Positions 53,276-58,774 of a DNA stretch of 64,000 bases are shown in pieces. Position 1 is the first letter of the stretch. Every line of letters starts with the position of its first letter. This DNA is from Thermodesulfovibrionales bacterium. GTDB taxonomy: Bacteria; Nitrospirota; Thermodesulfovibrionia; Thermodesulfovibrionales; SM23-35. The notes below the pieces were generated by a model that had not been told where the DNA came from, searched no databases, and saw only the letters and a list, made by a program, of their open reading frames with translations. The translations under genes and the position numbers were made by a program. Location: contig CAVQRT010000007.1 of NCBI GenBank assembly GCA_963715195.1, positions 320,001-384,000 of the forward strand, in the 5' to 3' direction.

Positions 53276-54583
53276 ATGGCCTTTTCATCATTCAGAGGAG
53301 GAATACATCCTCCTGACAAAAAAGAACTTTCTTCGGAGAAACCGATCTCCGCGACAAAACCTCCGGCCCGGGTCATAATTCCACTCAGCCAGCATCTCGG
53401 GGCACCATGTAAACCAGTCGTCACGATGGACCAGAAAGTGAAAAAAGGAGAAATGATCGGTGAACCAGCTGGCTTTGTCTCGGCACCGGTCCATGCATCC
53501 GTATCAGGCGGGGTGATCGCGATCGGAGAATTCCTCAATGCAATGGGAAGGATGGTGCCTTCTGTTGTGATCGAAAATGATGGGAACGAGGAATGGTCAA
53601 TGCTGAAAGATCATCCTGATTATATGAACCTCTCACCTGATGAGATGAGAGAAAAGATCAGGAACGCCGGGATTGTCGGAATGGGAGGAGCTGCTTTCCC
53701 GACAGTCGTTAAGCTGTCTCCGCCTAAGGAAAAACCCATCGATACAGTTATTCTGAACGGTGCCGAATGCGAACCATATCTGACCGCAGATTACCGGCTG
53801 ATGCTCGAAAAACCATTCGAGGTTGTCGAAGGGCTTAAGGTGCTCATAAAGGTTTTGGGGGTTCAGAGGGGATTCATCGGTATTGAGAACAACAAGCCTG
53901 AAGCTGTAAAATCGCTTAAAAAAGCTGCCCAGGGAGAGAACTCTGTTGAGGTCTGCTCACTTCCTACGAAATATCCTCAGGGTGCTGAGAAGATGCTTAT
54001 TAAAACAATTACCGGCAGGGAAGTTCCCCCGAGGGCACTTCCGATGGATGTCAGGGTGGTTGTTCAGAATATCAGTACTGCAGTCGCTGTCTTTGAAGCG
54101 GTTCGATACGGGAAACCCCTCATAGAAAGGGTTGTAACCGTTACCGGAGAAGGCATTTACCAGCCAAAAAATCTTTTGACAAAAATCGGGACTCTGGTAT
54201 CACAGCTTATTGAGGATTGCGGAGGCATAAAAGGCGAAAATCTGAAGGTGATCTCCGGAGGACCGATGATGGGCTTTGCACTCTCTTCACTCGAAATTCC
54301 TGTTACGAAGGGGACATCGGGCATCGTCGTTCTGGCAGAGAGTGATATTGTGCATATGGAAAGTTTCGGGCCGTGCATCCGCTGCGGCAGGTGCATTGAT
54401 ATCTGCCCGATGGGTTTGATGCCCTCGATGCTCAGCATCTATGCAGAAAAAGGCTTCTATGAAGGAGCAAAAGAATACGGCCTGTTCGACTGTTTTGAGT
54501 GCGGTTCCTGTGCATTTGTCTGCCCGTCGAAAAGGCCGATAGTTCAGCTCATACGTCTCGCAAAATCACAGGTAAAACCATGA
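53276..54583 (+). CDS. rnfC: Rnf complex subunit C
   Basis: FRGGIHP, GMGGAAFP, NGAECEPY and two ferredoxin motifs. Confidence 0.95.
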   Translation: MAFSSFRGGIHPPDKKELSSEKPISATKPPARVIIPLSQHLGAPCKPVVTMDQKVKKGEMIGEPAGFVSAPVHASVSGGVIAIGEFLNAMGRMVPSVVIENDGNEEWSMLKDHPDYMNLSPDEMREKIRNAGIVGMGGAAFPTVVKLSPPKEKPIDTVILNGAECEPYLTADYRLMLEKPFEVVEGLKVLIKVLGVQRGFIGIENNKPEAVKSLKKAAQGENSVEVCSLPTKYPQGAEKMLIKTITGREVPPRALPMDVRVVVQNISTAVAVFEAVRYGKPLIERVVTVTGEGIYQPKNLLTKIGTLVSQLIEDCGGIKGENLKVISGGPMMGFALSSLEIPVTKGTSGIVVLAESDIVHMESFGPCIRCGRCIDICPMGLMPSMLSIYAEKGFYEGAKEYGLFDCFECGSCAFVCPSKRPIVQLIRLAKSQVKP

Positions 54584-54673: not shown

Positions 54674-55669
54674 ATGGAAATTACCAAGAAACCATTTATT
54701 GTCTCGGTCAGTCCGCACATAAGAAGTGACGAGACAACGGCAAGGATCATGTGGAGCGTATCCGCTTGTCTGCTCCCAGCAGCAGTTATGGGAGCATACT
54801 TTTTCGGTCCCAGGGCAGTTTTGACTGTTTCGCTCTGCGTCATTGCATCAGTCCTCTCGGAACACCTGTATCAGAAGGCCCTGAAGAAACCGTCAACAGT
54901 CCGCGACGGCAGTGCCTTTCTTACCGGCCTTCTGCTCGGCCTTAATCTGCCACCTTCAGCGCCTTTTTACCTATCGCTGATCGGATCTTTTGTTGCAATC
55001 ATCATCACCAAACAGCTCTTCGGGGGACTCGGCTACAACATCTTCAACCCCGCCCTTATCGGAAGGGCATTCCTCGTAATCTCATTCCCAAAGCTAATGA
55101 CCGTGTGGAGCGAGCCGACTGCCGCATTCATTCTCCTTGACGCAAAGACCACGGCAACCCCGCTCGGAATTCTCAAAGAAGAGGGGCCTGCAAAGCTGAT
55201 ACAAGTCTTCGGAGATCAGCTAAACCTTTACGCCCAGCTTATTACCGGTCACAGAGCGGGTTCAATCGGAGAGACTTCGGCTGTTGCCCTTCTCATCGGT
55301 GCTGCATTCCTGCTTTATAAGAGATATATCACCTGGCATATACCTTTGTCCTTTCTCGGGACAGCTGCGGTGATCGCGTGGATAATCGGTGGAACGGATT
55401 CACTCTTTACCGGGGATCCCCTCCTGCACCTTTTCAGCGGCGGTATGATTCTTGGGGCTTTTTTTATGGCAACCGATTATGTCACGAGTCCTTCGATGAA
55501 AAGCGGCCAGATCGTTTTCGGAGCCGGATGCGGTTTTCTCACAATGCTCATCCGGCTCAAGGGCGGCTATCCCGAAGGGGTTATGTTCGCCATTCTGATC
55601 ATGAACGCTTTTGCGCCCCTCATCGACAGAGGATTTCAATCAAAATTCTTCGGGGCCGGAAAGAAATAA
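54674..55669 (+). CDS. rnfD: Rnf complex subunit D
   Basis: SPH, GGLGYNIFNPA, TTATPL (FMN threonine) and FFMATD. Confidence 0.95.
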   Translation: MEITKKPFIVSVSPHIRSDETTARIMWSVSACLLPAAVMGAYFFGPRAVLTVSLCVIASVLSEHLYQKALKKPSTVRDGSAFLTGLLLGLNLPPSAPFYLSLIGSFVAIIITKQLFGGLGYNIFNPALIGRAFLVISFPKLMTVWSEPTAAFILLDAKTTATPLGILKEEGPAKLIQVFGDQLNLYAQLITGHRAGSIGETSAVALLIGAAFLLYKRYITWHIPLSFLGTAAVIAWIIGGTDSLFTGDPLLHLFSGGMILGAFFMATDYVTSPSMKSGQIVFGAGCGFLTMLIRLKGGYPEGVMFAILIMNAFAPLIDRGFQSKFFGAGKK

Positions 55670-55684
55670 CCAGAGGGAGATACC

Positions 55685-56257
55685 TTGTCGGGAAAGGATA
55701 TACTGAAAATAACGTTTAACCTTGTTACAATCTATCTCGCTGGTGGATTAATCCTTGCACTCGTTTATGCAAAGACTTCACCGATCATGTACCGGAATGC
55801 TGTTCTGGAAAAGGAGAACGCCTTAAAAATGCTCATACCTGAAGCCGACAGCATTGACAAGCTGGGCGACTGGACGATTCATGACAAGCATGCAGAGTAT
55901 TTTGTCGCAAAAAAAGGAGATGCTGTCGCAGGGTACATTATCCAGTCATTCGGCAAAGGCTATTCAAGCTATATTAATACCCTCATTGCGGTCGATCCCG
56001 ATTTCAAAGTCCGGAAGATCAGTATCCTCGGTCATGCAGAGACACCGGGTCTCGGAGATGAGATTGAAGCAGAAAGCTTTCAGAACCAGTTCATTGGGAA
56101 AGGGCCGGACCATCTGACGGTATTGAAAACGGAGACGACAGACTACATTCAGGCAATTTCCGGAGCAACGATTTCAAGCAGGGCAGTTACCGAAGATGCG
56201 GTGAAAGCAGGACTCGATTTTCTCATAACCACCATGACAGATAAAAGCGAGGAATAA
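55685..56257 (+). CDS. rnfG: Rnf complex subunit G
   Basis: ETPGLG and ISGATISS FMN-binding motif; TTG start. Confidence 0.93.
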   Translation: MSGKDILKITFNLVTIYLAGGLILALVYAKTSPIMYRNAVLEKENALKMLIPEADSIDKLGDWTIHDKHAEYFVAKKGDAVAGYIIQSFGKGYSSYINTLIAVDPDFKVRKISILGHAETPGLGDEIEAESFQNQFIGKGPDHLTVLKTETTDYIQAISGATISSRAVTEDAVKAGLDFLITTMTDKSEE

Positions 56258-56874
56258 TGGTCCAGGGAGAAAAACCTGATTATATTGGGCTCATCAAAGA
56301 TGGCATTTTCAAGGAGAATACCATCTTCAAGCTTGCGCTGAGCCTGTGCCCTTCCATAGCGGTTACGAACAGTCTGCGGAATGGTGTTCTCATGGGAACC
56401 GCCGTCCTTTTTGTTCAGGTAATGGTCAACATTACCATTTCCATGATGAGAAATTTCATTCATCCGAGAATCCGTCTCCCTGTCTTCATGCTCGTCATTT
56501 CAGGGTGGGTCACGGTCACCGATCTGACCATGGCAGCCTTTGCCCAGGATGCATACAAGCAGATGGGTCTCTATATTCAGCTCATCGTTGCCTTTGCATC
56601 AATCCTTGCGCGCGCGGAAATGTTTGCGAGCAAGAACAAGATTGTTCCGTCCCTCTTTGACGGGATCGGGATGGGCCTCGGCTTTCTCTTTGCGCTCACT
56701 ATCATAAGTTTTTTCAGGGAGCTTCTCGGGAAAGGTTCACTGTGGGGTGTTCCGATTATCAACGCAAAGCCTCTCCTCATCATGATCCTCCCGGCAGGCG
56801 GCTTTTTTGCTGTCGGCATTTTGATGGGGTTTTTCAACTGGTTAGGTATGAGAAATGCTGGAAAAAGTCATTAA
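56257..56874 (+). CDS. rnfE: Rnf complex subunit E
   Basis: LSLCPSIAVT, RLPVF and LPAGGF. Confidence 0.9.
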   Translation: MVQGEKPDYIGLIKDGIFKENTIFKLALSLCPSIAVTNSLRNGVLMGTAVLFVQVMVNITISMMRNFIHPRIRLPVFMLVISGWVTVTDLTMAAFAQDAYKQMGLYIQLIVAFASILARAEMFASKNKIVPSLFDGIGMGLGFLFALTIISFFRELLGKGSLWGVPIINAKPLLIMILPAGGFFAVGILMGFFNWLGMRNAGKSH

Positions 56875-57039: not shown

Positions 57040-57627
57040 ATGGAATTTTGGAAACTTTTTGAATTGATTGTCTCAGCATCGCTGATTAATAACTTTGTGT
57101 TCACCCGTTTTCTAGGCCTCTGCATATTTTTTGGCGTCTCCCGGAGAATGGAAACAGCCATCGGCATGAGCATAACCTTCACGGTGGTGATGATGATCAG
57201 CGCAGGACTGAGCTGGCTCATTTTTCAGTACGTCATGATTCCCCTTGATATAACGTTTCTCAAGATTATCATCTTCATCGGTATTGTTGCCGGTTTTGTG
57301 CAGGCCTCAGACACCATCATGAGAAAAATCTCCCCGGGCCTTTATCACAAACTCGGCATATACCTTGCTCTGATATCTACAAATTGCATCATTCTTGCCG
57401 TTCCGCTGATTAACGCAGGGGAACAATACAGTTTTTTTGAAAGTCTTGCTTTTGCCCTCGGTTCAGGCCTCGGGTTTGCGCTTGCACTGATCATCATGGC
57501 AAGCATTCGCGAAAAGCTCGAACTCGCAGATGTTCCGGGTCCGTTCAGGGGAACACCGATCGCGTTTATCGTCACCGGCCTGATCGCCCTCGCATTTTCA
57601 GGCTTTGCAGGGCTTATAAAAATCTGA
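57040..57627 (+). CDS. rnfA: Rnf complex subunit A
   Basis: NNFVFTRFLGLC, LISTNC and AFSGF. Confidence 0.93.
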   Translation: MEFWKLFELIVSASLINNFVFTRFLGLCIFFGVSRRMETAIGMSITFTVVMMISAGLSWLIFQYVMIPLDITFLKIIIFIGIVAGFVQASDTIMRKISPGLYHKLGIYLALISTNCIILAVPLINAGEQYSFFESLAFALGSGLGFALALIIMASIREKLELADVPGPFRGTPIAFIVTGLIALAFSGFAGLIKI

Positions 57628-57637
57628 TGGGGGGGAA

Positions 57638-58774
57638 ATGCTGACGGATATCCTTCAACTGTTGCACCTTCCCGATATCGTTCACTTTCTTGTTCCATAT
57701 GCCGGGGTCGGAGGCGGGGTTGAGGCAAAAGAACATGTGGCGTTAGCGCCGTTAATCAAATACACCCTCATCTTCCTCGCTGCTGTTGGAACCATATTCG
57801 GACTCGGGCTCGCGCTTGCCGCAAAAAAATTTTCTGTAAGGACTAATCCAAAGGTCGAGAAGGTCAAGGAAGTCCTTGCTCATGCTCACTGAGGGGCTTG
57901 CGGGTTCGCAGGGTGCGAACAATACGCGGAAGCAGTTGTCAAAAACCCTGAGGTCCCCCCGAATCTCTGTGTGCCTGCGGGAGCAAGAGGAGCGGAGACA
58001 ATTTCCCGTATCACGGGCAAGAAACCCGTGGCACGGGAGCCAATTTTTGCGCGGGTCATGTGTCAGGGCGGTTGGAGCAGATCTGCAAAAAAATTTGTTT
58101 ATGAGGGAGTTCAGGATTGCAGGGCGGTCATGCTCACCGGCGGTGATAAGGCGTGCAGATATGGATGTCTTGGTTACGGGACATGCGAGCGAGTCTGTCC
58201 GTTCGGTGCAATTACCATGACAGGCGATCATCTCCCCTTCGTCGATATTCAGAAGTGCACCGGGTGCAGAAAATGTGAAGCGGCCTGTCCGACACAAATA
58301 ATCGAAGTTCTTCCGGAATCGAAACAGGTTCTCATTGCATGTCATTCAAAAGACAAAGGTGCCGACACGAAAAGAAGCTGCGAGGTCGGATGTATCGCGT
58401 GCGGGATCTGTGCAAAAATTTGTCCGTTTGATGCACCTTCCATCAAGCATAATCTGTCCGGAATCGATCTGAATAAGTGCACCGTTTGTGGTCTCTGCGT
58501 TCCGAGATGCCCGACAGGAGCAATAACAGAATTTATTCCGCAGCGGCCGAAAGCATTCATTCTCAGTCATTGCACAGGCTGCCGGATATGCGCCGAAGTG
58601 TGTCCCGTGGATGCGCCTTCTGGTCAAGTGCACAAGCTGCACGTCATCGATACGACGAGATGCACCGGTTGCGGTATCTGTACTGTACATTGCCCGGTCC
58701 AGGCTATTGACGGAACATTCAATGTTACCGCGGTCTTTGCCGCTGCGGCACAAAGGAAGCAAGAAGCCGCATAA
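57638..58774 (+). CDS. rnfB: Rnf complex subunit B (polyferredoxin type), predicted selenoprotein read through TGA 57890-57892
   Basis: ORFs 57638..57892 and 57971..58774 are in frame: VLAHAH-TGA-GACGFAGCEQYAEA...NLC; six ferredoxin-type motifs follow. Confidence 0.9.
57904..57920 (+). promoter_or_regulatory. Putative bacterial SECIS element in rnfB
   Basis: GTTCGCA-GGG-TGCGAAC perfect 7-bp stem; loop G 19 nt after the TGA. Confidence 0.7.

Follow-up and report, generated by a model that had tools for sequence, protein, structure and literature searches.

The rnfB gene of this Thermodesulfovibrionales bacterium contains an in-frame TGA, and the question raised by the locus is whether this codon ends translation or is read as selenocysteine (Sec). 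The gene lies on the forward strand at positions 57638 to 58774 of the window, that is, of the whole stretch of 64,000 nucleotides that was analysed. We estimate at roughly 93% the probability that the UGA is decoded as Sec with the help of a downstream hairpin, yielding a full-length RnfB in which Sec would take the place of one of the four cysteines that are predicted to hold the mobile, membrane-proximal B8 cluster.

The rnfB gene and its operon

When the TGA is read as Sec, the product has 378 residues. Its best NCBIfam model was NF005503 (274.1 bits for a cut-off of 252); it also matched TIGR01944 (138.5 bits, cut-off 68.7) and the A. woodii RnfB 9eri_B (E-value 1e-72). The structural features of RnfB are present: a membrane helix, an N-terminal domain with four ligands and ferredoxin modules. 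The membrane anchor helix was predicted at residues 36-64 (57743 to 57829, forward strand) from a hydrophobic stretch, which is helical in the AlphaFold model and aligns to the N-terminal helix of solved RnfB. The TGA (57890 to 57892, forward strand), in the context VLAHAH-U-GACGFAGC...NLC, encodes the predicted Sec85 and opens the motif U85-x2-C88-x4-C93-x17-C111 (57890 to 57970, forward strand), whose four residues are predicted to ligate the mobile B8 (FdI) cluster. The polyferredoxin part (residues 142-352; 58061 to 58693, forward strand) contains 28 Cys and is predicted to bind seven further clusters. In total, 31 Cys and residue 85 provide 32 candidate cluster ligands, sufficient for eight clusters. 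The first-pass annotation had announced six ferredoxin-type motifs downstream of the TGA. This is corrected here to five canonical CxxCxxCxxxCP motifs and an atypical one (C177-C183-C187), for which A. woodii RnfB has an aligned counterpart.

The same annotation had described one in-frame TGA, at residue 85 of 378 and at the first Cys position of the N-terminal motif, with no other lesion. The frame 57638-58774 was re-read and the TGA is its sole stop. Two solved Cys-type proteins, of A. woodii (9ERI chain B) and C. tetanomorphum (7ZC6 chain B, 7zc6_B), align with our RnfB over residues 46-360, including the anchor, the four-ligand domain and the polyferredoxin, and U85 pairs with the first Cys of NCGGCG in both, in agreement with the proposed position. 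Across 53 aligned full-length RnfB proteins, the columns C85, C88, C93 and C111 are invariant. Compared with the solved proteins, the source RnfB differs by its TGA-coded first ligand and by about 35 additional N-terminal residues. The AlphaFold model has a pLDDT below 50 at residues 82-87 (mean 63), and Se-Fe ligation is not visible in it; a fold search gave solved RnfB as top matches with a low TM-score and merely repeated the sequence result.

The N-terminal extension, residues 1-35 (57638-57742), carries a conserved GVGGG(V/I)E motif ahead of the membrane helix. In the relatives P0034, P0044, P0046, P0048 and P0052, a signal-peptide-like stretch with YA at its end precedes the extension; the counterpart of this stretch in the source family looks degenerate and acidic. 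Immediately before the Sec or Cys position, AHAH (57878-57889) is found where solved RnfB has PGAN, the Sec and Cys forms of the lineage being alike in this respect, and H84 is invariant in the 53 aligned proteins. Judging from their position, the two histidines adjoining the B8 ligand could influence the cluster.

The rnfB gene is the last of an operon ordered rnfCDGEAB, the order also given for C. aceticum in the accessible part of PMC7911925. On the forward strand, rnfC (53276 to 54583), rnfD (54674 to 55669) and rnfE (56257 to 56874) scored above the cut-offs of TIGR01945, TIGR01946 and NF009070, respectively. The best matches of rnfG (55685 to 56257) and rnfA (57040 to 57627) were TIGR01947 and TIGR01943, with scores slightly below the cut-offs (92 bits for 102 and 219.9 bits for 229.3). 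With rnfG and rnfA taken as such best matches, the operon is complete, as had been claimed. The rnfA stop and the rnfB start are separated by a G tract (57628-57637), within the rnfB ribosome-binding region, that varies among populations, runs X5, X7 and X10 having one extra G. A tblastn search with the six subunits, the query for RnfB being its first 135 residues, detected a single rnf operon, and no further copy of rnfB, in the genome (2.81 Mb, 6.6% contamination), which is 97.8% complete, so that a second, Cys-type rnfB could be absent from the assembly. Contigs of the RNA run X20 contained scattered pieces of the rnf operon, none of them over the UGA among the matches listed.

Selenocysteine machinery and the predicted SECIS hairpin

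In the bacterial Sec pathway, SelB with its Sec-tRNA binds a hairpin and decodes UGA. The first-pass annotation had left this machinery to be confirmed; selA, selB, selC (tRNA-Sec) and selD were all found in the genome, selD carrying an in-frame TGA of its own. The tRNA-Sec scored 73.4 bits (cut-off 47) and was the sole tRNA with a UCA anticodon found in the genome. TGA terminates 420 of the 1144 open frames longer than 300 codons and, being so common as a terminator, is not reassigned. Further likely Sec codons with hairpins were noted in the source genome (G000) at C7:305195 (+), C7:137465 (-), C14:10236 (-), C10:5473 (-) and C3:283983 (+). The likely selenoproteins concerned are FdhA-like, SelD, two near-identical DsbA-like (UPFC) and one DsbC-like (UPYC), all names except SelD being derived from motif recognition.

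The predicted SECIS upper stem-loop of rnfB is located 11 nt past the UGA (57904 to 57920, forward strand) and also encodes the peptide G-F-A-G-C-E-Q. The perfect hairpin GTTCGCA-GGG-TGCGAAC reported earlier is present as given. Its conserved part is shorter, a 6-bp stem (57904-57909/57915-57920) closing the 5-nt loop AGGGU, because the seventh pair is not retained by all relatives; what they have in common is six base pairs closing a 5-nt NGGNU loop. The folding z-scores calculated in three windows were -0.69, -1.17 and -2.41. A loose hairpin rule was satisfied by 4278 of the 121437 TGA triplets of the genome (3.5%), and a genome-wide scan of this kind was rejected as too loose to define the selenoproteome. 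By itself the hairpin is weak evidence, and its weight derives from the comparison with relatives.

In that comparison, a perfect 6-bp stem was found in 16 out of 16 TGA loci versus none of 60 Cys loci, and in none of the 12 Cys loci encoding the same F..E peptide. In a second set of 25 TGA and 34 Cys loci, perfect stems numbered 11 and 1, respectively, and Watson-Crick outer pairs 25 and 5. Once pooled, and after removal of duplicates and of frames shorter than 140 residues, 131 distinct loci, which are kin and hence not independent, showed at least 5 of the 6 Watson-Crick pairs in 41/41 TGA versus 8/90 Cys loci. The outer pair is G-C, C-G or A-U depending on the lineage, the silent third base of the Gly codon tracking the first base of the residue that follows Glu. 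TGA loci from the class of G445 have a looser inner stem: 9 of the 23 were perfect and 18 of the 23 free of mismatches. Phylogenetically independent pairs on well-supported branches numbered 3, with none contrary (p 0.25, too few for power). Sequence traits by which bacterial selenoproteins are recognised were found together at this site: a UGA at a conserved Cys and a downstream stem-loop with a G in its loop, kept in the Sec forms and lost in the Cys forms.

A near- or fully intact stem was also observed in some Cys-coding rnfB genes, L124 (G002), L102 (G016), L117 (G011) and L153 (G478), and 5 of the 6 Watson-Crick pairs are retained by the three that belong to the source family (G002, G016 and G011). 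From their sequences, such loci may have reverted recently from Sec to Cys or may be poised for conversion.

Distribution of Sec and Cys forms among relatives

The named relatives are Nitrospirota. Out of 60 relatives searched, 44 gave a match, and an internal TGA was detected in 8 of 22 genomes of the same family versus 0 of 22 from the order's other families. When the search was extended to the entire family, matches were obtained in 34 of 57 genomes; one TGA was present in 13 of these 34, including the source genome, and all 13 had it at the residue-85 site. TGA and hairpin are thus both conserved in relatives and the TGA is not private to the source genome. Within genera the two codons alternate, with four TGA and two Cys in g19 and one of each in g1. 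Two deltaproteobacterial classes, those of G445 and G446, were reached via loci L045 and L065. For G445, the search covered 151 genomes of its class, and 51 of the 59 best matches had one TGA; for G446, it covered 122 genomes of its class and gave 74 matches, of which 12 had one TGA. The site was verified in 23 and 4 distinct loci, respectively. The 91 weaker matches listed for the class of G445, where 49 more fell outside the listing, were mostly frames of about 690 residues and all free of stops; an additional RnfB-like gene, about 690 codons long, is present in many genomes of this class. Judging from the listed matches, only the short RnfB type seems to carry Sec.

In the pooled set, 41 of the 131 distinct loci had TGA at the site, and no other stop codon was found there. 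Either rnfA or rnfE was located 5' of the TGA-containing rnfB in 24 out of 24 genome loci and in 51 out of 51 metagenome loci with at least 900 upstream bases. A metagenome scan yielded 105 loci; 82 distinct TGA loci were scored, 77 of them with RnfB sequence downstream. The scan pattern included the stem, so these loci inform on spread and context and not on covariation. A search of 401 genomes of the phylum with a 14-base pattern matched 385 of them and was discarded, the pattern being too short to be meaningful. Each of the nine TGA genomes in the first set has selA, as do the four genomes of L043, L045, L065 and L067; with selA present in 56 of 61 genomes overall, this co-occurrence barely discriminates. 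Since most relatives are Cys-type even with selA so widespread, Sec is not required for RnfB generally; that so many selA-positive relatives use Cys speaks against Sec being essential to the reaction.

Sec forms sit in three RnfB clades, interleaved with Cys forms. A single Sec clade was rejected (p-AU 0.0003, on a quick tree with 18 of 47 rows Sec), and at least 15 Sec/Cys changes were counted on a FastTree tree of 131 rows. As far as they go, the trees are compatible with repeated gains or with one old gain followed by many reversions. The site is probably easy to convert, since G-F-A-G-C-E encodes the stem by synonymous choices alone. The Sec and Cys forms are most likely near-equivalent in function and have replaced one another many times.

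Reading of the UGA and predicted role of the B8 cluster

Other readings of the codon were weighed against Sec. An error of sequencing or assembly has a practically negligible probability and is refuted by the contigs of four out of four sequencing runs, from four studies, one run being possibly the source of the assembly itself: where a TGC or TGT could have appeared, all retain TGA, with no other letter at the codon (one run differs at 57913, the third G of the loop). The TGA is moreover shared by 12 further genomes from the family. If the TGA were a true stop, rnfB would be a pseudogene or would fall into two pieces, an anchor of 84 residues and a polyferredoxin of 267 residues starting at GTG 57971. 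Both open frames do exist and, as had been anticipated of gene callers, the 84-residue piece preceding the UGA has protein records in NCBI, JGI, Logan and ENA and falls in a five-member cluster; the 267-residue frame, as cut here, was absent from the same protein collection. Such a split would leave in neither piece the residues 85-111 with all four ligands of B8, a cluster whose cysteines, when mutated in A. woodii, abolish growth and activity according to the accessible part of PMC11889175. The recurrence of codon and stem in 41 of the 131 distinct loci, the lack of any alternative stop codon at the site and the intact state of the remaining operon also count against a stop, which we regard as highly improbable. 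The UGA could instead be read as Cys or Trp through a suppressor tRNA or an altered genetic code. Some deltaproteobacteria possess an opal-reading tRNA-Cys, and Cys at residue 85 would restore the canonical motif. Against this, the only UCA-anticodon tRNA found is tRNA-Sec, TGA is a common stop, and a stem that tracks TGA would be left unexplained; a reading of this kind is very unlikely. Selenocysteine at residue 85 is very likely on these comparisons.

A different proposal would supplement Sec decoding and not replace it: Sec would be a selected tuning of the B8 shuttle, acting on its potential, electron-transfer rate or oxidation resistance, and would recur for this reason. Sec on B8 would then be a repeatedly selected adjustment of the Rnf gating step, and the sole Rnf of these sediment bacteria would be gated by selenium at translation. 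In its favour, Sec occupies only one of the 32 candidate ligands and does so in three separate RnfB clades, grouping into one clade being rejected; in the class of G445, most of the best matches (51/59) have it; and the pumping cycle is set in motion by the reduction of B8 (accessible part of PMC11889175). On the other side, Sec and Cys alternate inside the genera g19 and g1, with the many changes counted on the 131-row tree, Cys forms occur in selA-bearing genomes, and the recurrence may merely reflect a downstream peptide that already encodes the stem. We hold this tuning to be possible but doubtful.

If the UGA is decoded as Sec, SelB with Sec-tRNA would bind the rnfB hairpin and residue 85 is predicted, by alignment to the solved Cys-type complexes, to be a ligand of B8. 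The accessible parts of PMC9588780 and PMC11889175 describe the N-terminal domain of RnfB as mobile and as shuttling from the ferredoxin chain to the RnfA/E centre. By analogy with these Cys-type complexes, B8 would be reduced by the ferredoxin chain in RnfB and then swing to the RnfA/E cluster. A failure of decoding would end translation after 84 residues and leave the anchor without any cluster; as the genome has a sole Rnf, a working Rnf would need selenium. We infer this dependence for the Rnf route alone and not for energy conservation as a whole.

The source RnfB is not a new selenoprotein family: it is a Nitrospirota-type member of a family already catalogued, generically named and listed as predicted. 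The catalogue representative, in RefSeq, has U at the same site in the context AQUGGCGFAGC (PMC12013277 supplement), also present in loci L161-L190. The family shares with our RnfB the best model NF005503, above its cut-off, the UxxC motif and the Sec site, the latter compared by reading the printed motif. The source protein differs from it by its Nitrospirota-type lineage, its length (378 residues, eight predicted clusters), its N-terminal extension and AHAH ahead of Sec. Neither the main text of the three catalogue papers nor that of BSepDB contained "Rnf", and the main text and supplement of BSepDB gave no match for Rnf, PRK07118 or NF005503. The family was not found in the accessible parts of the main text and supplements of PMC2398784, cited as the origin of the catalogue entry. 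Sec-RnfB was not described in the accessible parts of PMC5109826, PMC7911925 and the Haft preprint, and nothing on Sec-ligated ferredoxin-type clusters was found in that of PMC10779653. In the literature searched, which covered a minority of subscription journals, we found no description of Sec-RnfB among the papers listed and no paper that names the catalogued family as RnfB or places Sec on the B8 shuttle.

Sec likewise replaces Cys in other redox proteins of the energy metabolism of anaerobes, namely FrhD/MvhD/VhuD, HdrA, [NiFeSe] hydrogenase, FdhA and the RnfC-like Sec-PrdC. In MvhD/VhuD and HdrA, Sec ligates an Fe-S cluster. Those proteins have Sec at a catalytic centre or in a soluble bifurcating complex, whereas in the source RnfB it is predicted at the mobile shuttle of a membrane ion pump. 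All of them are catalogued; Table S3 of PMC5029168 has a row "RnfC" for an RnfC-like family, but no RnfB row.

The generically named catalogue entry is RnfB within rnf operons, with Sec predicted on an essential mobile cluster. Since public collections cut rnfB at the UGA, metabolic reconstructions can wrongly score Rnf as broken in these sediment bacteria. With Sec predicted on B8, one route of energy conservation would be tied to the supply of selenium. Close natural Sec/Cys pairs within a genus offer a test of the effect of selenium on an electron-transfer Fe-S cluster; if the tuning were true, the effect of a selenolate on the electron-transfer cluster of a pump would be directly testable in these pairs.
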